Of a stretch of DNA of 64,000 nt, positions 18,535 through 55,073 are shown piece after piece. A model generated the notes under the pieces. The model was not told the DNA's origin. It searched no databases and worked only from the letters and a program-made list of their open reading frames with translations. Positions within the stretch are counted from its first letter, which is position 1. Each line of letters starts with the position of its first letter. The translations under genes were made by a program, and so were the position numbers. The stretch is from Sedimentisphaerales bacterium (GTDB taxonomy: Bacteria > Planctomycetota > Phycisphaerae > Sedimentisphaerales > UBA12454), in contig JBEKEA010000002.1 in the NCBI GenBank assembly GCA_050014075.1, positions 26,860 to 90,859 of the forward strand. The letters are read 5' to 3'.

Positions 18535-19100
18535 CGGAGCGAAGCGGAGACCCCAGCGCTTAGTTTTGCTCGCGGGCAAAACTGCAGGGGATAGTTCCAA
18601 CACATCGTGACGCCTTAAAGCAATTTTGCCGTGTCAATCTGTGTTAATCCGTGTCTGAAAATCCTCTGTGGTCTCGGTGATCTCGGTGGCTAAAATATAT
18701 CTTCTTTGTCTTTGTGCCTTAGTGTCTTGGTGGCTATAAGCATTCAAAAAAACACAAAAATTATCAAAAAACAGGGCAAATTAATCAAAACTTGTCCGCC
18801 TCAGGCGTGATTAGTTCAAAAAAATCAAAAAAAATCAAAAATTTTCAAAATCTTTACTAAAACTTGTCCTCGCAACTACTTACAAACCATTTTTTAAAAA
18901 ATACTTACGCAAATAAAGGACTTATGGCAGACTCCATTTTACATTTTTTCCCTGTCTCGCCATAGTCTTTTGGCGATGGCGGAAACGCAAAATAAGGACT
19001 TACAGCTTTCGGATTTCGAAATTCGTATTTTTTTCATAGCGACTATCAATTATAAACTATGAACTAATTAACCAAACATTTCTTGCCATTCCACAGTAAG
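18535..19100. repeat. gene-free mosaic repeat block A
   Basis: Region 18838-18926 (reverse complement) matches 54066-54154 at roughly 85 percent by eye (CATAAGTCCTTTATTTGCGTA...GACAAGTTTTAGTAAAGATTTTGAAAA). It also shares the modules CTCTGTGG.CTCGGTG, GTCCGCCTCAGGCG, CGCCATAG...TGGCGATGGCGG and an ACGCAAA(T)AAGGACTTA duplication. Confidence 0.8.
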
Positions 19101-19204
19101 TATAGTATTATTTTAAAATAGTTAGTAGTTTTGTTTGCTTCGTATTTCGTTATAGGCCTCGGCCTAACTAACGCACTGCAAAGGACTTAATGAATATCGT
19201 CTCA

Positions 19205-19279
19205 CGGGGTGTAGCTCAGTTTGGCTAGAGCGCCTGGTTTGGGACCAGGAGGCCGTAGGTTCGAATCCTATCACCCCGA
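19205..19279 (+). tRNA. tRNA-Pro (anticodon UGG)
   Basis: A manual cloverleaf fits. Acceptor CGGGGTG/CACCCCG, D-arm GCTC/GAGC, anticodon stem CCTGG/CCAGG with loop TTTGGGA (anticodon TGG, G37), T-arm GTAGG-TTCGAAT-CCTAT, discriminator A. CCA is not encoded. Confidence 0.9.
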
Positions 19280-19322
19280 TATCGTTTTTTGACGAAAAAA
19301 ATCAGGTTTTTAAGGTAAAAAA

Positions 19323-21185
19323 ATGTGCGGCATTGTTGCTTATCTTGGCAAAAAACCGGCTCAGCCAATTCTAATAGAAGGCCTAAAACGACTTGAGTAC
19401 AGGGGTTACGACTCAGCGGGTTTGGGCCTGATAAATGGCAACGAGATAAAAATCATTAAATCCAGCGGCCGGATAAGCGTTCTTGAGGAAATTCTCGGCG
19501 ATCCTGACCCGAAAGAAGTTGTCGGCATTGGCCACACACGCTGGGCGACGCACGGCCAGCCGAACACTATAAATGCTCACCCGCACTTGGATTACACCGG
19601 CAAAATCGCGCTCGCTCACAACGGCATTATCGAAAATTACAGCACATTAAAAACCTGGCTCATCAGCAAAGGCTGCACGTTCAAAAGTGAGACCGACACT
19701 GAAGTTATCGCAAATCTTATTGGTTATTTATATTCGAATATTGACGGCGAAGATTGTCCCAAAGACGACCAGAACCGTTTTGAATGGGCTGTGCAGCACG
19801 CATTGAATGAGCTTGTCGGAACTTATGGCCTGGCAATACTTTGCGCCGATTTTCCTGAGATGCTGATTGGCGCGAAAAAAGGCAGTCCGTTGATTTTGGG
19901 CCTTGGCAAAAATGAATATGTTATCGCATCTGACGCCGCCGCGATAGTCGAGCATACAACTCAGGTTATTTATCTATCTGATAATGAAATGGTTACGATA
20001 ACCCCCCAGGGTTTTCACACAAAAACAATAGATAACGTTGAAATACATAAAGAGCTCAAGCAGATAGAATTTTCACTAAATGCGATTGATCTCGACGGTT
20101 TTAAACATTATATGCTGAAGGAAATCTACGAGCAGCCCAAGGCCCTTAGTATGTGCCTTGGCGGCAGACTTGATTTGCGCGATGGCAGGATAGTGCTCGG
20201 CGGAATAGGCAAATACTGGCGCGAATTTACAAGAGCGAAAAGAATTATCATTAACGCCTGCGGAACCGCCTGGCACGCAGGTCTTATCGGCGAATTCCTC
20301 ATCGAGCAATTAGCCAGAATCAACGCTGAAACTCAGTATGCAAGTGAATTTCGTTATCGAAATCCGATTATTGAAGACGATACGGTAGTTATAGCAATCA
20401 GTCAGTCGGGCGAAACGGCCGATACTCTTGCCGCTGTTGAGCAGGCCAGGGAACGCGGTGCAATTACGCTCGGCATTGTCAATGTCGTAGGCTCAACAAT
20501 TGCCAGGGCTACCGATGCGGGAGTTTATCTGAGGGTCGGTCCTGAAATCGGAGTCGCGAGCACAAAGGCGTTTACCGCTCAGGTCGCTGTGCTTGCTATG
20601 CTGGGCATTGAGCTTGGCAGAAGAAGACATCTTTCTTCTGAACAGGTCAGGTTATATATTGAAGAGCTTTCAAGGATTCCTTCGAAAATCGAAGATGTTC
20701 TTGCTCTTTCAGAACATATTAAAAAAATTGCCGAAGCGACGTGTGACAGAGAGAATTGGCTCTTTTTGGGCCGAGGGTTTAATTATCCGGTCGCTTTGGA
20801 AGGTGCGCTTAAACTAAAAGAGATAAGTTATATTCACGCAGAAGGTCTGCCCGCCGCGGAAATGAAACACGGCCCAATCGCGCTCATAACTAAAGGTATG
20901 CCTGCGGTTTTCATTGCGACTAAATGCTCGCAATACGACAAAATTATCGGCAATATCGAAGAAGTAAGAGCTCGCGGCGGGAGGACAATCGTTGTCGCCA
21001 ACAAAGGCGATGCTAACATCCGTCAATACGCTGATTTTCTTATTGAAGTGCCCGAAGTGTTAGAGGAATTGCAGCCGATGGTTACCGTAGTACCGCTGCA
21101 AATTTTAGCGTATCACGCTGCCGTCCTCCGCGGCCACGATGTAGATAAGCCCCGAAACCTGGCAAAAAGCGTAACGGTCGAATAA
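19323..21185 (+). CDS. glmS: glutamine--fructose-6-phosphate aminotransferase
   Basis: 620 aa with an N-terminal MCGIVAY (Cys nucleophile), two SIS domains, and the C-terminus KPRNLAKSVTVE. Confidence 0.97.
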   Translation: MCGIVAYLGKKPAQPILIEGLKRLEYRGYDSAGLGLINGNEIKIIKSSGRISVLEEILGDPDPKEVVGIGHTRWATHGQPNTINAHPHLDYTGKIALAHNGIIENYSTLKTWLISKGCTFKSETDTEVIANLIGYLYSNIDGEDCPKDDQNRFEWAVQHALNELVGTYGLAILCADFPEMLIGAKKGSPLILGLGKNEYVIASDAAAIVEHTTQVIYLSDNEMVTITPQGFHTKTIDNVEIHKELKQIEFSLNAIDLDGFKHYMLKEIYEQPKALSMCLGGRLDLRDGRIVLGGIGKYWREFTRAKRIIINACGTAWHAGLIGEFLIEQLARINAETQYASEFRYRNPIIEDDTVVIAISQSGETADTLAAVEQARERGAITLGIVNVVGSTIARATDAGVYLRVGPEIGVASTKAFTAQVAVLAMLGIELGRRRHLSSEQVRLYIEELSRIPSKIEDVLALSEHIKKIAEATCDRENWLFLGRGFNYPVALEGALKLKEISYIHAEGLPAAEMKHGPIALITKGMPAVFIATKCSQYDKIIGNIEEVRARGGRTIVVANKGDANIRQYADFLIEVPEVLEELQPMVTVVPLQILAYHAAVLRGHDVDKPRNLAKSVTVE

Positions 21186-21205
21186 AAAAACTCTGGTAGT
21201 TACAG

Positions 21206-21514
21206 TTAAACGTCTTCTACAAGAATGGCCTTGGCTGTATCTGTAAGCACTTTTGCTTTGTGTTTTTTGCCTGCCGGTATAAAGACGCCATCTCCCTGAC
21301 TGAGAGTTATTACTTTTCCATCGAAATTTATTTCCATTTGTCCTTCAAGTAAATAGCCGATATGCCCTTTTATGCACCAATCCTGCTCGACAAATTCTTT
21401 TGTATATTCTACTAACCGCATTTTCCTGCCGCCTTGTTCAAAGGCCTTGAACCTTACACCGGCCGCAGGTGATTGCCATTCCATCGAGTCAAAATCTATT
21501 TTGTATTGCTCCAT
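21206..21514 (-). CDS. cupin domain protein
   Basis: 102 aa containing GDGVFIPAGKKHKA, a cupin-2-like beta-barrel motif. Confidence 0.65.
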   Translation of the reverse strand: MEQYKIDFDSMEWQSPAAGVRFKAFEQGGRKMRLVEYTKEFVEQDWCIKGHIGYLLEGQMEINFDGKVITLSQGDGVFIPAGKKHKAKVLTDTAKAILVEDV

Positions 21515-22001
21515 TTTTCTGCGTCCTTAACAGTTTCTTCATTTTGTAATAATCAAGTTTTTTACCGTTTTTGACTTTCACAAAAGTCTTCTTTATGGTT
21601 TTATAGCCCAGCGAATCGTAAAATTTCTTGGCCGGCAGTGATGAATCCAGTTTGACAGTTCTGATTCCGGCCGAAAGGGCCTTTGTCTGGAGCTTTTGCA
21701 TAAGAAGTTTGCCTAAACCCTTTTTCTGGAATTTGGGATTAACAAAGACTCTCATAATATAGTCATCTATTAAAGTTGCGGTTCCGATGATTCGATTGCT
21801 TTTTTCTAAAACAATGGTGTATCCTTCTTTAGTGCCTTTTAAAATATTCTCATTATTGTGATAATCTTTAAAATATTTTATCGACTCGGCATTATAAAAC
21901 GGAAGATAATTTATATCGATTGTTTTATGTATCAAGTCTCTGACTGTGTCTAAATCAGACGATTTGAACTTTCTCATTTTTAGATTATTTTTTCCTGACA
22001 T
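21489..22001 (-). CDS. GNAT family N-acetyltransferase
   Basis: Contains VFVNPKFQKKGLGKLLM (acetyl-CoA binding Q/RxxGxG/A motif). 170 aa. Confidence 0.8.
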   Translation of the reverse strand: MSGKNNLKMRKFKSSDLDTVRDLIHKTIDINYLPFYNAESIKYFKDYHNNENILKGTKEGYTIVLEKSNRIIGTATLIDDYIMRVFVNPKFQKKGLGKLLMQKLQTKALSAGIRTVKLDSSLPAKKFYDSLGYKTIKKTFVKVKNGKKLDYYKMKKLLRTQKNGAIQNRF

Positions 22002-22002
22002 T

Positions 22003-22491
22003 TTATTTTCCAGTATCTTTTGCCATCATAATTATATCCGGCCGTTCAGTCCAGCCGGTATGTTTCCAGAACTTTCTGCCGGCACGGTTTTTCACAAAGG
22101 CGCATAGAGTACATTTTGAAAAACCTATGGCGGCCAATTTTGACAGTGCCCGATTTACCAGGGCTTTGCCGATTCCTTTTTTACGGTAGGAACGGTCAAC
22201 CGCCAAATGATATAAATGACCGCGTCTGCCATCGTGACCGCACAATAAGGTGCCAACTATTTTTTTATTATCGCGGGCGACAAAACTTAAACCCGGATTA
22301 CGCCGAAGGTATCTTGCCATTCCTTTTCTGGAGTCCGCGTCATTATGCAGCCCCATACCTTCGGTGCTTTCCCAGAGCCGAAGAGCTTCGTCGTAATCCC
22401 TGATTTTCATCTCAGCTATTTTAATTTCAGTTTTCATTGGAATTTTTGTATTTATTTTATCGTTTTTAGCAATTACCGTCAAGTAAGTCAT
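22003..22491 (-). CDS. GNAT family N-acetyltransferase
   Basis: Contains LAVDRSYRKKGIGKALV. The start may be the internal ATG at 22437 (MKTEIKIAEMKIRDY). Confidence 0.8.
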   Translation of the reverse strand: MTYLTVIAKNDKINTKIPMKTEIKIAEMKIRDYDEALRLWESTEGMGLHNDADSRKGMARYLRRNPGLSFVARDNKKIVGTLLCGHDGRRGHLYHLAVDRSYRKKGIGKALVNRALSKLAAIGFSKCTLCAFVKNRAGRKFWKHTGWTERPDIIMMAKDTGK

Positions 22492-22580
22492 CTCTCTGAC
22501 CGAAAGTTATTGCTTTTTCACCGAACATTTATTTTTCTTGCAAAGCATAATTAATATATATATCCTTGGTCAGGTTACTT

Positions 22581-24131: not shown

Positions 24132-24187
24132 TCAGACAGCAGAATATTCAAGTCCGGGGGATAAAGTTGTATAATCTCTCTATAACA

Positions 24188-25765: not shown

Positions 25766-25796
25766 AACCCTTTTTAAAAAAACAGCATTGTTTAAA

Positions 25797-26258: not shown

Positions 26259-26263
26259 CCTCT

Positions 26264-26638: not shown

Positions 26639-26688
26639 ATAGAATCGAATATATTATATATATCTGCGTTATAAAAGTCGAGAAAGAT

Positions 26689-28686: not shown

Positions 28687-29879
28687 ACTGCCTTTCTCAG
28701 TTTCGGGTCGATTGCGTCCCGCAGACCTTCGCCAAGAAGGTTATACGCAGTTACCGTAAAAAATATCGCAAGACCGGGAAAGAAAGTCAGCCACCACAAA
28801 AATTCACCCGTCGTGCTAACGCCTGTACTTAGCATCTGTCCCCAGCTCGGCGTCGGCGGAGCAACGCCAAAGCCCAGAAAGCTCAGCGCCGATTCGATAA
28901 ATATCGCTCCAGCCACTCCGAATGTTATACTGACAAGAACCGGCGCGATTCCGTTTGGCAGCATATGGCGAAACAAAATGCTTCGCAGCGGCAGACCCAG
29001 CGAAATTGCCGCCTGCACGAAATCCTGGTTTCGCAGTTTGAAAAATTCCGCGCGTATGAATCTTGCGTCGTCCGTCCAGCTTGTTATGCCGATGATTATC
29101 ATTATATTCAGCAGACTTCGCGGAAAAAACGCGACGATAGTGATAATCAGAAAGAACGTCGGCACCGACATCATAATTTCCAGCAGTCTCATCCCGATAA
29201 AATCAATTTTTCCGCCGAAGTAACCCATTATCGCGCCGAAAACGATTCCGATAACGCTTGAAATGCCCACTGCCACAAATCCGACGGACAATGAAATGCG
29301 TGTGCCGTGAATGAGTCTGCACAAAACGTCCGAACCGACGTCATCTGTGCCGAGCCAGTGTTCATTGCTCGGCGGTTTCTGGCTGACCTTTATATCTGTT
29401 CGCCCGTATCCGTAGGGGACCAGCGGAAAAATCGCGTTGCTCGCTTTGCCGCTCGCTATCATTGCCCTGTAATCGGTGGCGTCGAGTTTGCGAGGAAAGA
29501 AAATTTGCAGGAGTATAATGCCGACAAGCAATATTCCTGTGCAGATTAACACCTGCTTCCATAATACTCCCGACCTCAGGAATGGGTCAATCTTTCGGCT
29601 GTTGCGCCTGATTAATGAAACCAGAGTGATACCGGTTATCGCGGCAAGAAATACCGAATAGTCATTTGCCGTAAGGGTATCGAAAAGCGGAAAATGCACT
29701 TTGCCGTTAATATTAATTATCAAAGGCTTGTCATTTGCGATAAACGGCGCAAGAACCGCAATAGTGAAAAGTATTATTATAAACCAGAGACATACCAGGT
29801 TCGTCCGGTTCTTTGAAAACTGCTGCCAGACAAGCTGACCGTAAGATGTTCCCCAGTTTTTTTTATCCGCTTCGTTCAT
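28683..29879 (-). CDS. peptide ABC transporter permease (OppC/DppC-like)
   Basis: 398 aa with the binding-protein-dependent transport EAA-type region (AAISLGLPLRSILFRHMLPN). Confidence 0.85.
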   Translation of the reverse strand: MNEADKKNWGTSYGQLVWQQFSKNRTNLVCLWFIIILFTIAVLAPFIANDKPLIININGKVHFPLFDTLTANDYSVFLAAITGITLVSLIRRNSRKIDPFLRSGVLWKQVLICTGILLVGIILLQIFFPRKLDATDYRAMIASGKASNAIFPLVPYGYGRTDIKVSQKPPSNEHWLGTDDVGSDVLCRLIHGTRISLSVGFVAVGISSVIGIVFGAIMGYFGGKIDFIGMRLLEIMMSVPTFFLIITIVAFFPRSLLNIMIIIGITSWTDDARFIRAEFFKLRNQDFVQAAISLGLPLRSILFRHMLPNGIAPVLVSITFGVAGAIFIESALSFLGFGVAPPTPSWGQMLSTGVSTTGEFLWWLTFFPGLAIFFTVTAYNLLGEGLRDAIDPKLRKAV

Positions 29880-30874: not shown

Positions 30875-30875
30875 A

Positions 30876-30908
30876 CTATTAACTATCAACCAGCAACTAT
30901 CAACTAAC
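30876..30908. repeat. heptad tandem element filling the oppA1-oppB intercistronic spacer
   Basis: Reads ctattaac tatcaac cagcaac tatcaac taac. It occupies essentially all 35 nt between the stop at 30910 and the start at 30874. No SD is visible. Confidence 0.85.
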
Positions 30909-30909
30909 T

Positions 30910-32649
30910 TTATTTATATCGCTGCTTTTCCTTCGGAACATACCACTCGAACGGGTCGATGCCGAGCTTATGAACTATTACGTTTTCAAATCGCCTGTCC
31001 ACAAAATAATATCGCGGCCTTGTAAACAAAAAAGTATAAGGCTGCTCATCATACAGTAATTTTTGAAACTTATAATATATAGCATCTCTTTTTTCTTCAT
31101 TAAGTTCCCGCCGCCCTTCTTCTATGAGTTTATCCGCCTGTGGGTTATTAAAAGACACATAATCGCTGCCGCTCTGAATTTGCGACGAATGGAATAACTG
31201 ATATGGGTCCTCTTCGACAACTCCGCCCCATTGTGACTCGGCAGCGTCGAAGTCGCGGTTATGAAGATTTCCTAAATATATTGACCATTCAACCGGATTG
31301 GGGATGACATCTATCCCAACTTTCGCGGCGTCATCTTTGAGCAATTTTGCTATTTGTTCCGATGATGCGCCTCCCGCAGGATACGAATATTTGAATCGCA
31401 GCGGGATTCCATCTTTGTCGCGAATACCGTCGCCGTCGTGGTCTATCCAGCCTGCCTCGTCCAGCAGTTTAGCTGCTAACTGAGGGTCATACGGCCAGGG
31501 CTTGATATTCGAGTCATTTGCTTTGCCGTAAATATAAAACGGCCCTGTAATTACCATTCCTTTACCGCGAGTAAGGATTTCCACCATTGCCTTGCGGTCT
31601 GTTAAGCAGGTCATTGTCTGCCGGACTTTTTTGTCTTTGAAAAATGGTCTCTGTTCGTTCCACCCGATATACCAGTAGGCAAATGTCGGGTCCCAGAATA
31701 TTATTGCTCTAAATTCCTTTGCAAAATCCGGTTCTTTTGGCAGGGTCGTAACCTGTTCAGAGCCGGGTTCAAACATATCAATGTCATGAGAACGCAACGC
31801 CTGAACGGCGGCAGGGGCGTTTGCGATAAACTTATAAACAATTTTTTTCAGATTCGGTTTTTTGTCCCAGTAATTTTCATTCCGCTTCAATACTACCTGC
31901 TGGCCGACATCCCATTTTTCAAATACATACGGCCCGCTGCCTACAGGATTTGAAACCCGCTTATTGAATTCCTCAGGATTTTTAAACTGATATATATGTT
32001 TTGGAAAAATATCGAGCTCACCAACGGATTCTATCGTCTTCCAATACCGCTCTTTTAGAATGAATTTAATCGTCCGGTCATCAAGTTTGACCGCATTGGT
32101 TATGTTTTGAAGGTAATTGCGAAGGCTGGCACAGTCGGTTTTAGGATTCATAATCGTCTGGAAAGAAAAGACCACATCGTCTGCCGTTACAGGTACGCCG
32201 TCCGAAAAATGAATGTTGTCTTTTAATGTGATGGTTATCTCCAGCCCATTATCTGAAATATCCATCTTTGCCGCAAGCTTTGGCTTGAGTTTTATGCTGT
32301 TTGCATCGAGGTCCTGTATAAAAAGGCTTTCGATGATTGTTGACTCGACAACATTTCTTGTGCTGATATCGGCATCAACCACCACCGGGTTCAAGGTTCG
32401 CGGCTCACCGGTAATGTCCCAGATAAGCCAGTCGCCCTCGTCGCCGGGATATTTATTTGCAGACTGGGCGGTTAAATTTGACTCCTGCTTATTCATTGTT
32501 GTCTGCCGCTGACCCGATACCGCGTCCAGGATGACATTAAGTCTTTCATACAGCCTGTCCGATTGAATCATCGACAAAACCTGCAGCAGTATTACCGCAC
32601 CGAGCAGTAAAACCAGAAAAAACGTAAATAATCCTGACCGGCCGTTCAT
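30910..32649 (-). CDS. family-5 ABC substrate-binding protein (OppA/DppA-like), membrane-anchored, paralog 1
   Basis: The ATG at 32649 (MNGRSGLFTFFLVLLL) is preferred: TGGAG lies upstream and it parallels paralog 2. SBP_bac_5-like body. Confidence 0.85.
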   Translation of the reverse strand: MNGRSGLFTFFLVLLLGAVILLQVLSMIQSDRLYERLNVILDAVSGQRQTTMNKQESNLTAQSANKYPGDEGDWLIWDITGEPRTLNPVVVDADISTRNVVESTIIESLFIQDLDANSIKLKPKLAAKMDISDNGLEITITLKDNIHFSDGVPVTADDVVFSFQTIMNPKTDCASLRNYLQNITNAVKLDDRTIKFILKERYWKTIESVGELDIFPKHIYQFKNPEEFNKRVSNPVGSGPYVFEKWDVGQQVVLKRNENYWDKKPNLKKIVYKFIANAPAAVQALRSHDIDMFEPGSEQVTTLPKEPDFAKEFRAIIFWDPTFAYWYIGWNEQRPFFKDKKVRQTMTCLTDRKAMVEILTRGKGMVITGPFYIYGKANDSNIKPWPYDPQLAAKLLDEAGWIDHDGDGIRDKDGIPLRFKYSYPAGGASSEQIAKLLKDDAAKVGIDVIPNPVEWSIYLGNLHNRDFDAAESQWGGVVEEDPYQLFHSSQIQSGSDYVSFNNPQADKLIEEGRRELNEEKRDAIYYKFQKLLYDEQPYTFLFTRPRYYFVDRRFENVIVHKLGIDPFEWYVPKEKQRYK

Positions 32650-32663
32650 ATAAAGCTCCAAAT

Positions 32664-32702
32664 CTATTGACTATTAACTATCAACTACCAACTATCAACT
32701 AC
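32664..32702. repeat. heptad tandem element between the two SBP paralogs
   Basis: Reads tattgac tattaac tatcaac taccaac tatcaac tac. It overlaps the stop codon of the upstream SBP gene. Confidence 0.85.
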
Positions 32703-34441
32703 TTATACTTCTGTTTATCTTTCGGCACAAACCATTCTTCTTCTTTAAGACCGAGTTTATGAACAATTACATTTTCAAATCGTGGTGAAATTATACGGTA
32801 TGTCGGCCTTGAAAACAAAAAAGTATATGGCTGTTCATAGTGTACAATACTATGAAATTTTCGGTTCAATTCTATACGTTTTTCCTCATCCATTGTGCAT
32901 CTTATCTGCTCAAGAAGTTTGTCGGCCTCAGCGTTTCTAAAGCACACATAATTCGACCCGTGATTATCTATTTGAGATGAGTGGAAAATCTGATAGTACT
33001 CTTCCATAATATCTCCGCCCCAGCCCATCACTATCGCGTCAAATTTATGGTCCGGCAGCTTTGTTACTAGGACCGACCATTCGACAGGGTCGGGTATTAT
33101 TTCAATTCCAAGTTTAGCGGCTGAATCTTTAACAATATTTACTAAATTCTGATATAAAGCATAATCCGCTGAATAGGAAAACTTGAATCGAAAAGGAATT
33201 CCGTTTTTATCGCGGATTCCATCGCCGTCGGTATCTTTCCAGCCGGCCTCGTCGAGAAGTTCGGCGGCTTTTTTAGGGTCATACGGCCAGGGCCGGATAT
33301 TGGGGTCGTTTTCTTTACTGAATATGTAATATGGTCCGGTTATTTCATGCCCGCTGCCTTTAAGAAGATATTCGAGAAGAGCCTTTCTGTTTATCATCTC
33401 TGTCATAGCAAGTCTTACCCGCCTGTCGCCGAAGAAGGGCGTATTTTCGTTCCACCCGATATAGAAAAATGGCGAACCCGGATTCCAGTATACAAGACAT
33501 TTAAAATCATTTTTAAATTTTTCATCTTTAATTGCGTCCATAAACTGGTCCGGCGAAGGAATCATCATGTCCACATCGCCGCTGCGCAGCGCCTGCAGTC
33601 TGGCCTTGTCGTTGATTATAAATTTATACATTACTTTTTTTATCTTTGGCTTGATGCCCCAGTAATTTTCGTTTCTGCGGAACGTTGCTTTATCTCCCGT
33701 GTCCCATTTTTCAAAAATATACGGTCCGCTGCCGATTGGATTTGATACCCGTTTATTAAATTCCTCCGGGTCTTTAAATTCGTAGATATGTTTCGGATAT
33801 ATGCCGATGTCCCAAAATGATAAAATTTCAAGCGCCTTGAAATATGGTATTTTCATATAAAATTTGACTGTCTTTTCGTCGACCTTTTCGACGCCTTTTA
33901 CATCAATATACGATTGTGCAAAATCAGCGGCATCTATTTTCGGATTTATGACGGTCTGGTAAGTGAAAATAACATCGTCAGCCGTAATTGGCACACCGTC
34001 TGAGAAGTGAATATCGTCTCTTAATGTAAAAGTAATTTCCATTCCGTCCGGCGATACTTCATAGCTTTTGGCCAGCAGCGGTTTCAGCTTGATTTCATTG
34101 TAATCGTAGGCCAAAAGAGGCTCAAAAACATTTTCAAACATCATCCATCTGGCATATATATCTGAGTTAACCGAAATCAGGTTAAGCGTTTTCGGCTCGA
34201 TAGCCAATGCCCACACGAGCCAGTCGCCCTCATCGCCTGCGGTTGCCGCAGCCTGATTTTCGGCTTGTTTTGCTGGTATTTGATTTTGCACTGGTGCGCT
34301 GAATATGATTTTTTCGAGTGAATTTAATCTTTGGCTGAATCTGCTAAACTGGTTTTGGGTTAATAACTGCAATAATATTATGATGATTAGAAGGAAGAGG
34401 AAAAAAAATGCCTTTGCGCCAGTACCCGGCAGTCCGTTCAT
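32699..34441 (-). CDS. family-5 ABC substrate-binding protein (OppA/DppA-like), membrane-anchored, paralog 2
   Basis: 580 aa with GGAGG 8 nt upstream of the ATG and an N-terminal TM anchor. It is colinear with paralog 1 (for example IHFSDGVP(V/I)TADDV(V/I)F, FNKRVSNP(V/I)GSGPY(V/I)FEKWD). Confidence 0.85.
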   Translation of the reverse strand: MNGLPGTGAKAFFFLFLLIIIILLQLLTQNQFSRFSQRLNSLEKIIFSAPVQNQIPAKQAENQAAATAGDEGDWLVWALAIEPKTLNLISVNSDIYARWMMFENVFEPLLAYDYNEIKLKPLLAKSYEVSPDGMEITFTLRDDIHFSDGVPITADDVIFTYQTVINPKIDAADFAQSYIDVKGVEKVDEKTVKFYMKIPYFKALEILSFWDIGIYPKHIYEFKDPEEFNKRVSNPIGSGPYIFEKWDTGDKATFRRNENYWGIKPKIKKVMYKFIINDKARLQALRSGDVDMMIPSPDQFMDAIKDEKFKNDFKCLVYWNPGSPFFYIGWNENTPFFGDRRVRLAMTEMINRKALLEYLLKGSGHEITGPYYIFSKENDPNIRPWPYDPKKAAELLDEAGWKDTDGDGIRDKNGIPFRFKFSYSADYALYQNLVNIVKDSAAKLGIEIIPDPVEWSVLVTKLPDHKFDAIVMGWGGDIMEEYYQIFHSSQIDNHGSNYVCFRNAEADKLLEQIRCTMDEEKRIELNRKFHSIVHYEQPYTFLFSRPTYRIISPRFENVIVHKLGLKEEEWFVPKDKQKYK

Positions 34442-34689
34442 CAGCTCAAACCTCCATTGTTTCTGTTATTTTCGACGACCCGGAAATTCTATCAAAAAAA
34501 CATCCTATGTGCCAATCTTTTCCATTCAGTGAGGTTGCATCTGAAAGCACAACTTCCAATCGATGATATTAAAATTTTTTGAACGAAAAATAATCCGCAG
34601 GACGCCACAGGCGGGACTTAGGAATGAAAAATTGGGAAATTTGAAAATTTTTTCGTTTATTTTTGACGCAACCATCTTAAAAAATAAGG

Positions 34690-34985
34690 AGTTAGGTCGA
34701 AAAACCCTTCGACTGCGCTCAGGGCAGGCGACGTAAAAAATGACGTAAGTCCTTTGTTTTCGAGGGGGTTTTTTATGTAAGTGTTTGCAGGGACAAGTTT
34801 TAGTGGCGTAATCCGCTAAGGGATGCCTCACGGCAGCCATCTCGACGATATAGATTTTGATTTTTTTGCCCTGTTTTGGAATGATTTACCCCTGTTTTTT
34901 GATGATTTTGGTGTTTTTTTAAATACAGTTATCGGTTATCAGATCATCAAGTTATTGGGAAACGGTTATCGGTTATCAGCACGAA
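34690..34985. repeat. mosaic repeat block B ending in a heptad element
   Basis: Shares TTCGACTGCGCTCAGGGCAGG, GTAAGTCCTTTG, GGGACAAGTTTTAGT, GATTTTGATTTTTTTGCCCTGTTTT and TTTTGGTGTTTTTTTAAAT with blocks A and C. Region 34927-34985 holds GTTATCN heptads, followed by GCGGGGGGATTTTTTATGG, which is also at 55029-55046. Confidence 0.75.
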
Positions 34986-35186
34986 CAACTCAGGCGGGGG
35001 GATTTTTTATGGTGGAGTTTGGGAAGAAAAAGTGTATAATTAAATATTGTTTAGTTTAATTTATCGGAGTGAAGGAAGAGAAAACATGCGGCATAAGTCT
35101 GTTGGCATTTTGTGCCGCCACAAGTTATCTTAATTTCCTTTTTCGCTGCTGTTAGTTTAGACCAAATTTTTTGGAAGAAGAAGAAA

Positions 35187-36050
35187 ATGAAAAAAAAACT
35201 TCGGGCAGCATTACTCATTATCGTTTTGCTGATGAGTATTCTTGCACAAGCTGATGATATCTATATATCGAGTTTTAATGGTCCCTATAACGGGGCAATT
35301 TATAAATACGATTCCAGTGGAAACAAGACTATATTTGCCTCGGGCTTAATGAATCCCTGGGGTCTTGCAGCTGACAAAAGCGACAATATTTATACAACTA
35401 AAATTGATGGACACATTTATAAATATGATATAAACGGAAATATGTCCACCTATGCAACAGGTATATTGAGTTGTTCGAGTTTAACGTTTGATAAAAATGA
35501 CAATCTCTACATTACCTGCGATATAAACGGGGAGGGACTAGTTTACAAAATTGATTCCAGCGGAAAAGGAAATGCTTTCGTCACAGGATTGGGCCATCAC
35601 CCCCAAGGCCTTGCATTTGACAATAACAATAATCTCTATGTGGCTGTTGTAGTAAACGGAATAGGGACAATCGAGAAATTCGATTCCAATGGAAACAGGA
35701 CTACTTTTGCATCCGGTCTTACAAATCCTCGCGGCCTGATGTTTGACAGTACGACTTCTTCTCTTTACGCTGCTGAGCAGAACAATATCGCGATATACGA
35801 TTTAATTGGAAATACAAGCAGTTCAATAACAGTAGACGGAGGGTGGCCATGGGGTATGGCATTTGACAGCAGCAGAAATTTATTCGTAGCCGATCACGAG
35901 ATGGGAAATATTTACAAAATAGACCCGAGCGGAAACAGAACCATTTTTGATTCAGGATTGGAAGGTCCTTATTCTATCGTGATAATTCCCGAACCGGCGA
36001 CGCTTTTGCTGATTGGATTAGGAGCGGTAGCGATGAGAAAAAAAAGATAA
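35187..36050 (+). CDS. PEP-CTERM-anchored beta-propeller (NHL/SMP-30-like repeat) protein
   Basis: The ATG at 35187 (MKKKLRAALLIIVLLMS signal) is preferred over 35112. Repeated GLxxPxGLAFD units. C-terminus IPEPATLLLIGLGAVAMRKKR. Confidence 0.8.
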   Translation: MKKKLRAALLIIVLLMSILAQADDIYISSFNGPYNGAIYKYDSSGNKTIFASGLMNPWGLAADKSDNIYTTKIDGHIYKYDINGNMSTYATGILSCSSLTFDKNDNLYITCDINGEGLVYKIDSSGKGNAFVTGLGHHPQGLAFDNNNNLYVAVVVNGIGTIEKFDSNGNRTTFASGLTNPRGLMFDSTTSSLYAAEQNNIAIYDLIGNTSSSITVDGGWPWGMAFDSSRNLFVADHEMGNIYKIDPSGNRTIFDSGLEGPYSIVIIPEPATLLLIGLGAVAMRKKR

Positions 36051-36073
36051 TAAATTTTGGGAGAAGAAGCGAT

Positions 36074-37186
36074 ATGAGGAATAAACGGTTATTTATTTGT
36101 GCAGGTTCTACGGTTATTATTTTCATCAGCAGTTTTGCCTGCGCATATAATCAGGTTATAGACCTTGGAACGCTGGGCGGCAGTATCAGCACTGCGTATT
36201 CCATAAATGACAGCGGACAAATTGTCGGGCGGGCTTATAATAGTTCCGGCACATGGCGAGCGTGTCTTTTTGATTCAACGGGGGGCGGCAGAAATACAGA
36301 CCTGGGAACGCCCGGCAGCAATGAAAGTTACGCATATTCAATCAACAACAGCGGACAGATTGTCGGCAACGGACGATACAGTCCGACAAATTACGATTAT
36401 CGTGCCAGTCTTTTTGATAACACTGGAAACGGCAATAATACAGACCTGGGAACATTCGGCGGAAATCAAAGTTACGCCTTGTATATCAATAACAGCGGAC
36501 GGATTGTCGGCAGCGCTTACAACAGTTCCGGCTATGCGTACGCCTGTCTTTTCGATAAGACTGGCGCCGGCCACAATGTCAGCCTTGGCACACTGGGCGG
36601 CAATTATAGTGAAGGCTGGTCAATCAACAACAGCAATCAGATTGTCGGCTGGGCATCGGATAGTTTGAGCCAGCAGCGAGCCTGTCTATTTGACAACACC
36701 GGCGGCGGACACAATATCGACCTTGGGACGCTGGGCGGCAGTCAAAGCAAAGCCTGGTCAAACAACGACAGTGAACAAATTGTCGGACATGCTTACATTA
36801 GTTCAGGTAACTGGCATGCGTGTCTTTTTAACGCTGCCGGAAACGGGGCAAATATCGACCTTGGAACGCTGGGAGGGACTGATAGTATCGCTTATTCCAA
36901 TAACGACATTGGGCAGATTGTAGGCTATTCTACAATAAATGGCGGCAGCAATTGGCACGCCTGTCTTTTTGATTCGACAGGAAACGGGAATAATATTGAT
37001 CTGAACAATTTAATAGACCCCGCATCCGGCTGGGTGCTGCAGGCGGCACAAGACATAAATAACAACGGCTTGATTGTGGGCTTTGGAATTCATAACGGCC
37101 AGGATCACGCGTTTCTGCTTGTTCCTGAGCCTGCGACGCTTTTACTGATTGGATTGGGTGCGGTGATGCTAAGAAAAAAACATTAA
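36074..37186 (+). CDS. PEP-CTERM-anchored HAF-repeat extracellular protein
   Basis: About 8 repeats of LGTLGGxxSxAxxINxSGQIVG...ACLFD. C-terminus DHAFLLVPEPATLLLIGLGAVMLRKKH. Confidence 0.8.
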   Translation: MRNKRLFICAGSTVIIFISSFACAYNQVIDLGTLGGSISTAYSINDSGQIVGRAYNSSGTWRACLFDSTGGGRNTDLGTPGSNESYAYSINNSGQIVGNGRYSPTNYDYRASLFDNTGNGNNTDLGTFGGNQSYALYINNSGRIVGSAYNSSGYAYACLFDKTGAGHNVSLGTLGGNYSEGWSINNSNQIVGWASDSLSQQRACLFDNTGGGHNIDLGTLGGSQSKAWSNNDSEQIVGHAYISSGNWHACLFNAAGNGANIDLGTLGGTDSIAYSNNDIGQIVGYSTINGGSNWHACLFDSTGNGNNIDLNNLIDPASGWVLQAAQDINNNGLIVGFGIHNGQDHAFLLVPEPATLLLIGLGAVMLRKKH

Positions 37187-46996: not shown

Positions 46997-47005
46997 CGAA
47001 TTTTA

Positions 47006-47842: not shown

Positions 47843-47865
47843 TTTAGTACTCCTTCACACAAATT

Positions 47866-50169: not shown

Positions 50170-50311
50170 TGCCTGTAAAAATCAATAGTATTATATCATG
50201 CTCAGTTTAATATTTCCGATAATCCGCGGGTAACACCTTTTAAATAAGATGTTGCGATTTTCATCGCGGAAGTTTCTTACCCTTAAGGGTATATTATAGC
50301 TTTTTAATAAA

Positions 50312-51256: not shown

Positions 51257-52188
51257 ACGACCTCATCAGACCAGAAAACAGGGCCGTCCTTACAGCAGAG
51301 CTTGTATATAGTGTTTCCGCTCGCTTTATCGCGGCATTTAACCGCGCAGCTTTGGCATAAGCCTGTTCCGCAGGCCATCCTGCGTTCAAGGCTGACCTGG
51401 CAGGGGAGTTTGAACTGCGAACTAATCGCAGTGGTCGCGGAAAGCATCGCTTCAGGGCCGCAGGCGTAAACTATCGTGTCTTTGCCGTCAGGTTTATTTT
51501 TAGTAAGCCAGTTTTCTAAAGATTGCGAAATAAATCCCTTAGTGCCGGCAGTACCATCGTCTGTGCTTATAAATGTTTTGATATTAAGCCGGCTAAATTC
51601 GCCGAGGGTGATATCTGTTTCTTTCTTTAGCTTGCTCGTTTCAATATCGAAAAATGCCAGACCCGCCAATGTCTTTGCGCCGACAAAAGCAATTAACTCG
51701 ATAGGACATTGTTTTTTCAAGACCTTGGCAAGATGTATAAGTGGGGGAGCGCCCATTCCGCCGGCGACAAGTAACGCAAGTTTTTTATTTTCCGGCAATT
51801 TAAAGCCGCTGCCAAGCGGACCAATGAAATTAACAGAGTCTCCGATTTTGAGAGTTTTCATTCTCAATGTCGCAGGGCCCAGAACGCAATAAAGAATTTC
51901 CACGACAGTAGTATCATTATTGCAATCGATGTCGGCAAAGCTGAAAGGTCTTCGCAGAATAATATCTCTTTGAGCCGAGTCCCAAAGCTGGCCAGGAATT
52001 AACTTCTCAGACGGCAGGGCAAGTTTTGAAACATCAATTTCAATAAATTGGCCGGCAGATGCGTGTGAAAATGGGATGTTAGCCTTTTTTTCAAGTTCGA
52101 GAGTTAAACGGCAAAATTTATCGCCCAGGCTGCGATTCATTAAGACTGTCGCGTTGAAGATTCCTTTTTTTGACGGTGAGTCTGTCAT
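51247..52188 (-). CDS. pyrK: dihydroorotate dehydrogenase electron-transfer subunit
   Basis: FAD/NAD-binding fold with a C-terminal 2Fe-2S motif MACGTGLCQSCAV. Overlaps the pyrD start. Confidence 0.88.
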   Translation of the reverse strand: MTDSPSKKGIFNATVLMNRSLGDKFCRLTLELEKKANIPFSHASAGQFIEIDVSKLALPSEKLIPGQLWDSAQRDIILRRPFSFADIDCNNDTTVVEILYCVLGPATLRMKTLKIGDSVNFIGPLGSGFKLPENKKLALLVAGGMGAPPLIHLAKVLKKQCPIELIAFVGAKTLAGLAFFDIETSKLKKETDITLGEFSRLNIKTFISTDDGTAGTKGFISQSLENWLTKNKPDGKDTIVYACGPEAMLSATTAISSQFKLPCQVSLERRMACGTGLCQSCAVKCRDKASGNTIYKLCCKDGPVFWSDEVVWE

Positions 52189-52602
52189 AAGTAGCTATAT
52201 TTAAATCAATTACGCAATGAAATGTCAATACATTTATGGTGAGCCAGCTTGTCCTGTTTACCCTGAGCTTGTCGAAGGGAGCAGCATCGAAGGAGTCGAA
52301 TCCATAAAAAAACTCCCGGAATAGTCATCCACTGGCATTCCGGAAGTTCGCCACGGCTTAAAAGCCGCAAAAATCTCGTTTTCATCGGGCGTAAGTATAT
52401 CCATCACAGATATGATTGTCAATCTACTTAGAAAAATTACAAAAAATTGCATAACTATTTATGAATGAATAAGTTATGGTAAAAAAATACGAAAAATTGG
52501 AAAAATTTAGAATAAATCGCAAATATGCGCAATAAGTTATTGTGCAGTAATGACTTAGATTATTTGTTGATTTGCGTGCAGTTTCTTGTAGAATCTCTGC
52601 CT

Positions 52603-53988
52603 ATGTCTAAAATAAAAACAGGATGTTTTGCGGTACTGGCGCTGGTTTTTTTGCAGCAGTTGGCTTGCGGCGCGACTCTGCAGGAAAAGATAAATGAAAT
52701 AATTTCGAGGAAAGACCAGAAGAACGTTCAATACAGCATTGCGGTTCTCGATCCTCAAACCGGCAACTGCGTTTACAGTAATAATCCAGCAAGGTCGCTG
52801 ACGCCGGCTTCGAATATGAAACTTGTAACAAGTTTCACTACGCTGAAACGGCTCGGAGCCAATTATAATTTTGTAACAAAGGCCGGCCTGATTGACCAAA
52901 AACTTGTCGTAATTGGAAGCGGCGACCCGCTTTTAGGTCTGCCCGGCAAAGATTTCATTACGAAAATTGTCGATTCTCTTAAAGCTAAGGGAATTAATAA
53001 ATTAGACGGCGTAATAATCGATAGTTCTATTTTCGACGGCGAATACTTTCATCAGAATTGGCCAAAAGCACAGCTTAACAGGCCTTATGCCTGCGAAATA
53101 AGCGGGCTGAATTATAACGGCAACTGCATAAAAATTACCGCAACAAACGTCGCAGGCAAAATTAAACTGACTAAAGAGCCAAATACGATGTTTTTGCGAT
53201 TACTAAATAATGTTAATGTCGCACCGACATCAAAGGGCGAAAGCGAAGTAGGCTCAAACCGGACCGAGCAGGAAAATATGATTATGGTTTACGGTAAATG
53301 CAAAAATACCGCTTCATTCGATGTCGCAATCGAAAAGTCGCCGCAGTTTTTCGGTTATCTTCTTTGCGAAAGCCTTGGCAGGGCAGGGGTTGCGATTGCA
53401 AATCCTGTAGCAACCGAAGCAGGCGTCAATCCGCAAAATATGCAAATCGTCGCTGAATTCAATACACCCATAATGGAAGTAATTCATAACTGCAATAAAG
53501 ACAGTCTGCATATAGCCGCGGAGAGCCTTTTAAAGACTTTGGCTGCAAGTAGTTCCGGCGGCAAGGCAGGAAGCTGGCAGGGCGGCAGGAACGCAATAGA
53601 TAGTTATCTTGCGAGCCTGGGAGCTACCAAAGGCGAATATTATATCGACGACGGAAGCGGACTTAGCAGCGTAAATAAACTTTCAGCAAATGTGCTAACT
53701 AAAGTGCTTCTCGACGCTTATAAAAGCCCGCTTTGGCTGGCGTTCAAGCAGACACTTGCCGTCGGCGGAGTAGATGGCACAATAAAAAAACAATTCTATA
53801 AAGCAAAATATAAAAACAGGGTCTTCGCAAAAACCGGATATATCAACGGCGTTCGAGCCCTTTCCGGCGTGTGCGTAACCTTAGGCACCAACAAGGAATA
53901 TATCTTTTCAATCGTTACAAACAACGCAAATTACCCCACCAAAAAAGCAATATTCGATATCGTTCAGTCAATTATGGATTCTCAATAA
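52603..53988 (+). CDS. dacB: D-alanyl-D-alanine carboxypeptidase/endopeptidase (PBP4, peptidase S13)
   Basis: The ATG at 52603 (MSKIKTGCFAVLALVFLQQLACG signal) is preferred over 52525. SxxK active site PASNMKLVT, with a KTG motif (AKTGYI) near the C-terminus. Confidence 0.85.
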   Translation: MSKIKTGCFAVLALVFLQQLACGATLQEKINEIISRKDQKNVQYSIAVLDPQTGNCVYSNNPARSLTPASNMKLVTSFTTLKRLGANYNFVTKAGLIDQKLVVIGSGDPLLGLPGKDFITKIVDSLKAKGINKLDGVIIDSSIFDGEYFHQNWPKAQLNRPYACEISGLNYNGNCIKITATNVAGKIKLTKEPNTMFLRLLNNVNVAPTSKGESEVGSNRTEQENMIMVYGKCKNTASFDVAIEKSPQFFGYLLCESLGRAGVAIANPVATEAGVNPQNMQIVAEFNTPIMEVIHNCNKDSLHIAAESLLKTLAASSSGGKAGSWQGGRNAIDSYLASLGATKGEYYIDDGSGLSSVNKLSANVLTKVLLDAYKSPLWLAFKQTLAVGGVDGTIKKQFYKAKYKNRVFAKTGYINGVRALSGVCVTLGTNKEYIFSIVTNNANYPTKKAIFDIVQSIMDSQ

Positions 53989-53997
53989 TTGACTGGA

Positions 53998-54026
53998 GTT
54001 GATAGTTGGTAGTTGATAGTCATAAG
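53998..54026. repeat. heptad tandem element (GTTGATA, inverted orientation of TATCAAC)
   Basis: Reads gttgata gttggta gttgata gtcataag, 10 nt after the dacB stop. Confidence 0.85.
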
Positions 54027-55073
54027 TCGTTTGTTTACGTTGAAAAAACGTAAAAAGGTGCATTTCATAAGTCCTTTATTTGCGTACTGTTTTTTTGAAA
54101 AATGGTTTGTAAGTTTTTAGCGGGACAAGTTTTAGTAAAGATTTTGAAAAATTTTGAAAATTTTGGATTATTTTGAACGAATTTTGATTTTTTTGCCATG
54201 TTTTTATACGATTTTTCACTTTTTTTAATCACTGATTACGCAGATATAAAAGATATGTTTTCACCACAGAGAGCACCGAGGCCACAGAGATTTTTAGACG
54301 CTGATCCGCCTCCGTCAAGGACTATGGTGGACAAGTTTCGCAGATTACGTTCACCACGAAGGGCGGAAGAAACACGAAGACAATATTAATTTCACCACCG
54401 AGCCACAGAGCTCATCTGCCGTCGCTACGAGCTATGGCGGACAGGCAGAACGCACAGAGGCGATATTGCTTTAAGACATCCCTACGGGATTTAATAATTC
54501 TAAAATCAAACCCTCCCTGAAGCCGACCCATTCGACTACGCTCAGGGTAGGGCTTCGTCCGGGTTTATATTTTGTAATTATTGCCCCTAAGGGGCTTTTG
54601 TCTTAAAGCAATAGAACATTTTCACTATGCTGTATTGCAGTATACTGTAATACAGTATACTGCATACGAGTATAGAGATTTAAGATTTTTGATACTGGGA
54701 GTTTTTGATACTAAAGATTTTTTGAAGAAAGGGGAATTAGTGCAGGCGTCCGCCGTCGTCCCTAAGGGCTTCCGTCTTCGCCAAAAGGCTACGAACGGAC
54801 AGGATGACGAGATCTTCGCTTCGCTCCGAGGCGGATAAAAGTCGGTGGTGGTGGTTTTTGGTGTTGTAGGGGGCCCCCTTGCGGGGGTTTCCGCTGCGCT
54901 CCAACGCTGTGGCTCCGACGAAAAATTCTTTTTATAAAAGTGTTTTACGTAGCCACTAAGTCACCAAGACACGAAGATAATTTTAAATTCTAAATTTTTA
55001 ATGTTGAATTGCGGAGCCACCGAAAGCGGGGGAATTTTTTATGCGGCAAAAAGGAAATTTAAAATAGGTGACT
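54027..55073. repeat. gene-free mosaic repeat block C (about 1 kb)
   Basis: Region 54066-54154 matches block A (reverse complement) and partly block B. It has multiple CACCACAGAG/CACCGAGCCACAGAG units, four CCG(Y)C..TCGC...CTA(T/C)GG(Y)GGACAGG-type hairpin modules, GACTACGCTCAGGGTAGG, GAGGCGGATAAAAG and GAAAGCGGGGGAATTTTTTATG, plus a perfect palindrome at 54636-54664. Confidence 0.8.

Follow-up and report, generated by a model that had tools for sequence, protein, structure and literature searches.

What is known of mosaic intergenic repeats in bacteria comes mostly from a small number of cultured pathogens and model species. The BOX elements of Streptococcus pneumoniae are intergenic, with boxA-boxB(n)-boxC modules in fixed order and polarity and a variable number of internal units, and the Correia elements of Neisseria can include promoters as well as sites at which bending proteins act; both are 100 to 300 bp long with both ends defined, the Correia elements having terminal inverted repeats and a TA duplication. 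The 3' ends of genes are the usual location of bacterial interspersed mosaic elements (BIMEs). Within a BIME, successive repetitive extragenic palindromes (REPs) are alternately oriented, and the head of each bears a GTAG or CGTC tag (PMC2817692, PMC3733652). Neisseria intergenic mosaic elements (NIMEs) are intergenic arrays of repeat modules located by variable genes and have been linked to recombination, rearrangement, and exchange of neighboring genes (PMC1797815, PMC9778887), acting with natural transformation, DNA uptake sequences (DUS), and the Ssn nuclease (PMC11893778). Here we describe a well-delimited family of mosaic intergenic repeats from an uncultured planctomycete lineage of peat and sediment. 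It was found in a 64,000-nt stretch of a Sedimentisphaerales genome (Phycisphaerae, Planctomycetota; GC content, ~44%), called the window below, in which three gene-free blocks, A, B, and C, each hold an array of modules headed by a conserved core. The explanation toward which we lean is that the blocks are lineage-specific, polar, mosaic noncoding DNA repeats that travel with variable islets and probably supply homology for recombination. No described family matches them; as a class, mosaic intergenic repeats linked to genome plasticity are well known.

Comparison with described repeat families
The defining features of BIME/REP, NIME/dRS3, miniature inverted-repeat transposable elements (MITEs), integron attC sites, Ssn/SRM, and Rfam families were tested against the arrays, and none was found apart from the siting of NIMEs at variable genes and rearrangement points. 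Like NIMEs, the arrays are lineage-specific, multicopy, and intergenic, with modules beside variable genes and at rearrangement points, and the role of portable homology that we propose for the cores is the one proposed for the NIMEs of Neisseria (PMC1797815, PMC9778887). The 20-bp dRS3 palindrome of NIMEs (ATTCCC-N8-GGGAAT), however, is not in A, B, or C, and neither are hairpins of the broader type ATTCCY...RGGAAT, which occur elsewhere in the window, at 16859-16949 (beside a GIY-YIG gene) and 29533-29583. The partnership with transformation, DUS, and Ssn has been described for NIMEs. To our knowledge, nothing in NIMEs corresponds to the long polar core, with its TAAGTCC boxes and phased T-tracts.

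With BIMEs the arrays share a composite makeup of small GC-rich hairpins, which insert independently, and other conserved motifs. The patterned hairpins are nevertheless co-oriented (minus strand in A, plus strand in C) with 3' ACAAG/ACAGG tails; their 3' ends read GGCGGACAAG, CGGACAGG, or GGGCAGG, no GTAG or CGTC head is visible, and the arrays are mostly upstream of, and directed at, a gene. No RAYT gene was found in ~77 kb of this genome, and Y1_Tnp is not among its Pfam labels. The arrays resemble BOX and Correia elements as ordered, polar, intergenic modules with variable internal units, but they are 0.4 to 1.1 kb long, with one sharp and one ragged end and no duplication seen at the sharp end. 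Intergenic runs of heptanucleotides recall the short tandemly repeated repetitive (STRR) sequences of cyanobacteria, although the heptamer sequences and the phylum differ and heptamers are only one class of component here. An integron was rejected on array layout, position, and recombinase, not on the attC consensus: there is one core per contig, the cores of the window are 16 to 20 kb apart, the element is upstream and not downstream of genes, and the sole tyrosine recombinase is at the XerD equivalog cutoff, far below the cutoffs for integron integrases.

One polar array in each block
Each block is an entire intergenic gap, between a LysM gene (minus strand) and tRNA-Pro (plus strand) for A (18425-19204), between an SBP_bac_5 gene (minus) and a PEP-CTERM/NHL gene (plus) for B (34442-35186), and between a Peptidase_S13 gene (plus) and a small minus-strand open reading frame (ORF) for C (53989-55099). 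An earlier note, made by reading the sequence, had given B too small a size. The two-box pattern TAAGTCCTTTNTTTNCG-N{20,50}-GGACAAGTTTTAG matches three times in the window, once per block, and never in 100 shuffles, which bears out the note's claim of shared modules. The similarity of A and C, put there at roughly 85% by eye, amounts to 87% over 114 nt (E = 1e-20), and a separate alignment gives 82% over 141 nt. All of the small modules that it listed are present, no more than 1 to 2 nt from where they had been placed, and hairpins with the ACAGG/ACAAG tail number one in A, as it had counted, and three by pattern in C, where it had counted four. The view that the modules occur in different order and orientation did not survive: by pattern search, all of them are on the minus strand in A and all on the plus strand in B and C. 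Each block is one polar array, A being simply inverted, with a module order broadly alike in the three. Of the length of A, B, and C, 39 to 61% is covered by sequence found again at 13 metagenome loci that are unrelated, compared with 0% of coding controls and 0 to 33% of other intergenic regions.

The blocks do not appear to hide genes, as had been thought from the start. ORFs of 78 to 191 aa within or overlapping them have no Pfam match, a 104-aa ORF crossing core B has no match in the protein collection searched, and coding is ruled out by the indels of 1 and 10 nt that distinguish the core copies and break any reading frame.

Architecture of the core and the array
The 16 cores that we compared are the three of the window and 13 from the Joint Genome Institute (JGI) metagenome Ga0187886 (loci are given L numbers below), drawn from ~77 kb of the source genome and ~90 kb of a related metagenome organism. 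Aligned, all copies have a single shared architecture in two forms, short and long, and the family of composite repeats suggested in the earlier note is thus supported, with copies in the window and one related metagenome. From 5' to 3', an array consists of a core of 230 to 340 bp, tandem "words," GC-rich hairpins and palindromes of 120 to 150 nt, and, in B and C, GCGGGGGATTTTTTATG with a promoter-like module. The core contains three to four TAAGTCC/GGACTTA boxes (both direct and inverted), an invariant GGACAAGTTTTAG(TAAAGATTTTGA) box, and ~120 bp of T-tracts, and exact TAAGTCC boxes are confined to cores. Its 5' boundary is sharp at AAAATAAGGACTTAG, beyond which the flanking sequence is unique to each copy, and its 3' end is ragged and varies among copies.

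The short form (~330 bp; B and 11 metagenome loci) has its sharp left end at AAAATAAGGACTTAGGAACGAAAAATTG, followed by an AT-rich palindrome with GTAAGTCCTTT closure, AAGGAGTTAGG, a hairpin slot, GAAAAATGACG-TAAGTCCTTTGTTTTCGAGGGGGTTTTTT, and GTAAGT...GGGACAAGTTTTAGTAAAGATTTTGA. The slot holds unrelated fillers (TTCGACTGCGCTCAGGGCAGG, CCCCACAGTTTTGCC...GGCAAAACTAAGCGTGGGG, or GACGCACGGCCGTGCGTC) or is empty. The long form (A, C, L006, and L007) has the left part swapped for two direct TAAGTCCTT(A/T)TTT(T)GCG boxes. Pairwise identity among the 12 short cores is 63 to 88% (median, 74%), and invariant stretches of 19 to 25 nt are found in the 16 copies. The T-tracts, which both forms possess, have a spacing peak at 10 to 10.5 bp with ~11 times the spectral power of shuffled sequence; helical phasing of this kind is a signature of intrinsically bent DNA and implies that the core is probably curved.

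Past the T-tracts, the copies diverge into a common repertoire of modules, which comprises the words CACCGAG/CCACAGAG/CACGAAG, ACACGGAT, and tandem GTTATCR, GC-rich hairpins with ACAAG/ACAGG tails, a run of 15-bp units, and the 120- to 150-nt palindromes, with the closing stem TTGCTTTAAGRC/GYCTTAAAGCAA. C, L016, and L007 have the same long layout, module for module. Many arrays end, just upstream of a gene, in a shared purine-rich module (TTGAGT/TTGCGT, TTGAAAAGAAAAAGAG, and TAGAAT/TATAAT), diverged versions of which close B and C and which may be a sigma-70-like promoter. The distance from core to promoter module, read from the sequences, varies from ~50 to ~800 nt.

Within block C, the set and order of the words and hairpins at 54264-54445 are the same in L016 and L007. 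The large palindrome that follows (54466-54611) has a minimum free energy of -57 kcal/mol on the plus strand and -60 kcal/mol on the minus strand, and its homologs (one in L007, two in L016, and one in L097) have the same closing stem apart from one double change (AAGAC/GTCTT to AAGGC/GCCTT) but different inner hairpins. Retention of the stem despite replacement of what it encloses suggests that hairpins are selected for or generated. No other piece of the long arrays is as well conserved as the run of 15-bp units, the first two of which each hold a 12-bp near-palindrome, RCAGTATACTGY; the order of the units is swapped between the window and L016/L007, and the run looks like an operator or iteron array.

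Small hairpins behave as separate, REP-like units and have been inserted into individual cores. The hairpin CCGCCATCGCCAAAAGACTATGGCGAGACAGG of core A is absent at the same point in C, L006, and L007, a single hairpin of reversed orientation is inserted in core B, and L008 carries a small insertion of its own, distinct from those of A and B. The hairpin CCCCTGCAGTTTTGCCCGCGAGCAAAACTAAGCGCTGGGG of block A (18551-18590) also occupies the hairpin slot of the cores of L004, L008, and L016, and beside it, 18612-18624 is the unpaired half of the large-palindrome closing stem ATTGCTTTAAGGC.

Runs of heptamers are also seen across the window, at 15455-15495, 30875-30915, 32670-32710, and 53997-54028 and also at 435-571, 17858-17876, 34926-34980, and 59154-59184. 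(AACTAYC)n immediately follows stop codons or separates neighboring genes, and (GTTATCR)n occurs in several intergenic regions and inside arrays. The long-form core of L006 is split in two by an insert of ~3.2 kb (1246-4460 of that locus) within its T-tracts, which we take, by eye, to be an element with an IS1595-family transposase.

Breakpoints and mosaicism
All three blocks coincide with homology or synteny breaks versus close relatives, the outcome of a check that the earlier note had proposed. The relatives are the related organism of Ga0187886 (represented by locus L014, which is syntenic with the left flank of block B and has a neighbor gene 92 to 93% identical), a sister species (assembly GCA_003142275.1; L096 to L100; flanking peptidase, 91% identical), and a close relative (L105; GlmS, 97% identical).

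At block B, the promoter region of the SBP gene is 96% identical to that of L014 as far as the core's left edge; the core aligns only as a mosaic, and beyond it homology ceases. One stretch of core B is nearer to the nonorthologous L010 than to its ortholog in L014, and for the next stretch the reverse is true; this patchwork reads as direct evidence of patch exchange between dispersed copies. L008 and L009 likewise have a near-identical flank, with a shared gene that is presumably of the PilZ type, and diverge at the left edge of the core. The neighborhood of B also has two tandem SBP_bac_5 paralogs (30910-34441), whose divergence from L014 is uneven near the block (92 to 93% identity in the tail of the distal gene and 60 to 88% in the gene beside B).

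At the site of block C, the sister species has an 860-nt noncoding block with the same classes of modules, rearranged and without a core, next to a gene for an SDH_protease and an unrelated 71-aa ORF. Homology between the window and the sister (alignment to L097) resumes at ~57863, directly after the CCGCCTGAGGCGGATAAATG hairpin. The sister block is real and stable, not hypervariable, because it is identical in five assemblies from five samples, which also rules out a fast turnover of the phase-variation type.

At block A, the LysM promoter is 95 to 98% identical to that of L105 until ~18540, a few bases from the start first given for the block. The next ~700 nt in L105 are unrelated noncoding sequence without a core, followed by a tRNA-Pro that is 100% identical and inverted. 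The closest representative genome lacks a block, with rho directly adjoining the tRNA. The tRNA-Pro of the window (19205-19279) is upstream of glmS in the same orientation, and it is inverted in 10 of 12 related genomes as well as in L105, which points to a probable recent local inversion next to block A.

Gene context and polarity
The cores are oriented with respect to the genes around them: 13 of the 16 point at a co-directional next gene, ~300 to 900 nt away (binomial p = 0.011). Genes on the 3' side have a mean GC content of 0.381, compared with 0.452 for those on the 5' side (Mann-Whitney p = 2e-4), and are largely accessory. Several are of the defense type (DUF5677, a LEM-3-like GIY-YIG nuclease, FRG, DUF4145, an N6/N4 DNA methylase, and an Eco57I-type restriction-modification enzyme), and others code for a protein kinase, a dockerin protein, a large beta-helix/CBM protein, and an Rrf2 regulator. 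B, C, and most of the metagenome copies are at the edge of a small low-GC variable islet, with genes for restriction-modification, other defense-type, or secreted proteins, and point inward. The islet bordered by C (55100-57862) consists, by Pfam labels, of a 72-aa ORF, a 498-aa Methyltransf_31 protein, and a 219-aa NspV-family protein (GC content, 0.36 to 0.38), and the latter two are likely a restriction-modification system.

Distribution of the family
The core family is restricted in its lineage. The two-box pattern, found at 13 loci in Ga0187886, has no match among 185,579 representative genomes, which include neither this species nor a close enough relative; the closest GlmS proteins in species-representative genomes (84 to 89% identity) are all from metagenome-assembled genomes (MAGs) of Planctomycetota/Phycisphaerae/Sedimentisphaerales. 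No copy was found by nhmmer with the 16-core profile in 79 glmS loci, which included 13 related Sedimentisphaerales/Planctomycetota genera (~240 kb), and in a subset of these loci the module strings were absent or at chance level. An invariant 24-mer had no match in viral contigs, and blastn of the blocks against plasmid and phage collections gave none. Proteins of the window recur, identical, on contigs of the ENA metagenome assembly ERZ27250059, and each of the three blocks is spanned by a contig of that assembly, on record beside the contig of the NCBI MAG. An NCBI Sedimentisphaerales MAG also has a peptidase that is 100% identical to that of the window across the 95% of the query that aligned.

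Possible roles of the arrays
If the blocks are recombination repeats, as we lean to think, the dispersed copies of the core would act as portable homology, and recombination or gene conversion between them, within and between genomes, would keep the copies similar and shuffle the modules. Such exchange could let the adjacent gene or genes be replaced or moved, and for many of the copies, a gene moved in this way would come already equipped with an upstream region and a promoter. The hairpin modules may be REP-like passengers (PMC2817692), and bending, termination, or protein binding at the core might assist. The recombination hub of the earlier note is supported in this respect by comparison (breaks at three of three blocks and mosaic copies), not by experiment. 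Several points weigh on the other side. The recombination itself is read from the sequence comparisons, and passive build-up of repeats in plastic, gene-poor regions would yield the same breaks and mosaicism. The 16 cores come from ~0.17 Mb of two related organisms, a small sample, and the 13 metagenome loci were picked by the two-box pattern itself. Short-read assemblers may misjoin at repeats, so the breakpoints that rest on a single contig (L008/L009 and L014) are possibly in part artifacts. C, L014, and L016 face a convergent gene, block A adjoins no variable gene, its LysM neighbor being conserved in L105, turnover is not fast, with no variation within the sister species over the five samples, and no recombinase, transposase, or binding protein could be linked to the boxes.

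The main rival is transposition or site-specific capture, which we consider unlikely. The core would then be a nonautonomous mobile element, MITE-like or the end of a larger transposable or integrative unit, with TAAGTCC boxes bound by an enzyme encoded elsewhere. A sharp 5' end with unrelated flanks fits such an element, yet no target-site duplication was seen at the 5' junctions and the 3' end is ragged and specific to each copy, whereas MITEs and transposon ends have two ends, terminal inverted repeats, and a target-site duplication. Some transposons have multisite ends, which the three to four direct and inverted boxes of the core resemble, but exact boxes were found inside cores only, with no second, inverted set beyond the downstream genes at any locus, and a transposon end or cassette with a second box cluster was rejected. 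The large number of copies (median pairwise identity, 74%), the low-GC accessory cargo on the interior side, and the restriction to one lineage would suit a mobile element, while no shared transposase or integrase stands beside the cores, the sole recombinase of the window reaches the XerD equivalog cutoff, and the IS1595 element of L006 interrupts its core rather than serving it. A related idea, to which we give only a slim chance, is that the core is the attachment or assembly platform of a gene-capture system, an upstream, promoter-bearing counterpart of the integron attC, at which a recombinase or nuclease acting on TAAGTCC boxes in bent DNA would swap single defense or accessory genes with their upstream region between fixed sites and genomes.

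Quite unlikely, in our view, is a core of regulatory or architectural DNA, in which the boxes and bent T-tracts would nucleate a DNA-binding protein, such as a transcription factor or a nucleoid-associated silencer of foreign genes, and two hairpin-plus-T-run motifs would shield the downstream gene from transcription that starts upstream. The helical phasing of the T-tracts, the invariant boxes repeated in each core, and the terminator-like stem and T-run within it could all be read in this way, and so could the orientation to a next gene that is of low GC content and the common promoter-like module at the end of several arrays. The regulatory hubs of the earlier note are no more than plausible, given this polarity and the promoter-like ends of B and C; the distance from core to promoter, which varies from ~50 to ~800 nt, makes a fixed regulatory geometry less likely. 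A co-directional gene is lacking for three cores, no binding protein was found, and at the orthologous sites the core is missing (C and A) or mosaic (B), so that it is not needed for the neighboring conserved genes. By eye, no pair of hexamers with workable spacing suggests a sigma-70, sigma-54, or extracytoplasmic function (ECF) promoter within the core, and an element like oriC is ruled out by the many copies.

Structured noncoding RNAs, another proposal of the earlier note, or long structured leaders are very improbable. The 120- to 150-nt palindromes fold at -41 to -70 kcal/mol, with a closing stem kept while inner hairpins are swapped and one stem pair showing a double change, and the patterned hairpins of A and C share the orientation of the array; the antisense strand, however, folds equally well or better, as DNA palindromes do, so structure at the DNA level and at the RNA level are inseparable here. 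For the conserved core the proposal failed: RNAalifold on 12 cores gave a weak consensus fold (-18 kcal/mol; covariation term, +0.36) with a compensatory change in 1 of 39 pairs, and where an inverted box is mutated (L005, L010, L011, L013, and B), the partner box is unchanged. Rfam returned only the flanking tRNA-Pro at the gathering score, and at E<=1 nothing for A and B and one chance-level match for C, to a eukaryotic long noncoding RNA model (E 0.96). No conserved promoter was seen by eye at the 5' edge of the arrays, and the content of orthologous sites is not conserved. Neutral debris, that is, decayed genes or elements, slippage, and assembly artifacts with no shared origin or role, is already unlikely, and we give it scarcely any credence. 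Arrays largely of simple tandem heptamers and octamers, content that turns over between sister genomes, and short-read contigs that often terminate near the elements would agree with it. Against it stand a complex core of 230 to 340 bp with invariant stretches of 19 to 25 nt in 16 copies, the preserved order and polarity, the lack of likeness to any protein family, plasmid, or phage sequence, and the recurrence of the blocks in more than one assembly.

The family is unusual in its polar design, with a boxed and apparently bent core, hairpin and word modules, and often a shared promoter-like module, and it has a measurable tie to low-GC defense-type genes and to every local synteny break. Should the tie hold genome-wide, variable islets in these genomes could be marked inexpensively by the sequence of the cores, which would also be a lead on the exchange of defense genes without recognizable mobile-element genes. 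The repeats probably also explain the fragmentation of short-read assemblies at these sites in the lineage.

Features of the three blocks

Table 1 Position and makeup of the modules in blocks A, B, and C (window coordinates; strand in parentheses)
Feature	Position	Content	Basis
Two-box pattern	18857-18924 (-), 34746-34803 (+), 54068-54135 (+)		Pattern search
CACCGAG(R)CCACAGAG	18664-18679 (-), 54274-54289 (+), 54396-54410 (+)		Pattern
TTCGACTRCGCTCAGGGYAGG	34708-34728, 54531-54551		Pattern
GCGGGGG(G)A(A)TTTTTTATG	34994-35011, 55026-55043		Pattern
GAGGCGGATAAA	54828-54839, 57848-57859, 17912-17923 (-)		Pattern
Core A, long form	18723..19059 (-)	Two direct TAAGTCCTT(A/T)TTT(T)GCG boxes; GGACAAGTTTTAG box; T-tracts ~18723-18856	nhmmer with profile of 16 cores, E 5.5e-59
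GC-rich hairpin CCGCCATCGCCAAAAGACTATGGCGAGACAGG, 33 nt	18951..18982 (-)	Inserted in core A between GCGTT and GAAAAAATG	Core alignment, regular expression
Second small hairpin, reverse complement TAATCACGCCTGAGGCGGACAAG	18791..18813 (-)	Inserted in core A T-tracts; other long forms without it	Alignments
Block A tandem words	18637..18720 (-)	CACCAAGACAC/AAGGCACAAAGAC; CACCGAGACCACAGAG 18664-18679; ACACGGAT/ACACAGAT 18637-18654	
Block A hairpin region	18551..18624 (-)	Hairpin CCCCTGCAGTTTTGCCCGCGAGCAAAACTAAGCGCTGGGG 18551-18590; large-palindrome stem half 18612-18624	
Core B, short form, sharp 5' boundary	34589..34932 (+)	Left box GGACTTAGG, AT-rich palindrome, AAGGAGTTAGG, slot TTCGACTGCGCTCAGGGCAGG (34708-34728), TAAGTCCTTTGTTTTCGAGGGGGTTTTTT, GGGACAAGTTTTAG (34746-34803), T-tracts (34853-34920)	nhmmer E 1.4e-77, alignments
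Weak terminator-like stem and T-run in core B	34750-34767		Scan
20-nt hairpin TCCGCAGGACGCCACAGGCG	34594..34613 (+)	Inside core B left box; 11 other short-form copies without it	Alignments
Block B proximal part	34926..35040 (+)	GTTATCR runs 34926-34980; GCGGGGGGATTTTTTATG 34994-35011; putative promoter-like module, TATAAT 35035-40	
PEP-CTERM/NHL gene downstream of block B	Start 35187		
Core C, long form	54023..54251 (+)	Two-box pattern 54068-54135, then T-tracts	nhmmer E 1.6e-45
Block C words and hairpins	54264..54445 (+)	CCACAGAG, CACCGAGGCCACAGAG, CACGAAG interleaved with CCGCCTCCGTCAAGGACTATGGTGGACAAG (54306-54335), CCGTCGCTACGAGCTATGGCGGACAGG (54419-54445)	
Large imperfect palindrome, 146 nt	54466..54611 (.)	Stem TTGCTTTAAGAC / GTCTTAAAGCAA; three inner hairpins, one containing TTCGACTACGCTCAGGGTAGG	
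15-bp tandem units TGTAWTRCAGTATAC, three to four	54622..54680 (+)		Self-repeat and comparison
Block C proximal part	54750..55065 (+)	Long hairpin 54750-54803; GAGGCGGATAAA 54828-54839; GC hairpins; CACCAAGACACGAAG words; GCGGGGGAATTTTTTATG 55026-55043	
Putative promoter-like TAAAAT, block C	55060-65	No co-directional gene beyond	
Low-GC (0.37) islet bordered by block C	55100..57862 (-)	Ends at hairpin CCGCCTGAGGCGGATAAATG, 57840-57862	

Other observations in the window
A 96-aa single-domain GIY-YIG protein is encoded at 16564-16854, its nearest solved relative being PDB 1zg2, a UPF0213 protein. On the 3' side of the gene, up to 17020, there are an ATTCCTG-CGTTCGC-CAGGAAT hairpin and two tandem units of ~70 nt with GTCATTCC(C/T)GAGAA...GGAA(T/C). 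SRMs, with the motif HGTCWY..YYVSBRH..WNVSBRG..RNCYNB, cluster around a single-domain GIY-YIG gene, and the NTS reads CGTCATTCCCGCG..GCGGGAATC (PMC11893778). By analogy, the gene and its hairpins resemble an Ssn single-strand nuclease with flanking SRM/NTS hairpins, with the published SRM motif unmatched in the window. Ssn/SRM was rejected as a source of the block hairpins, as that motif has 0 matches in the window and SRM-like hairpins occur only at 16855-17020, 3' of the GIY-YIG gene.

Four tandem paralogous TPR genes are found at 3243-10136, the last of them with PMT_2 on record. A copy of the initial ~100 nt of polA (10216-10314) is present at 8462-8560 (88% identity) and a shorter one at 6789-6837, which suggests that successive tandem duplications may each have taken along the start of polA. 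Last, two adjacent genes at 35112-37186 code for products with PEP-CTERM-like tails (FPEPATLLLIGLGAV...), the second with internal tandem repeats of ~138 nt.

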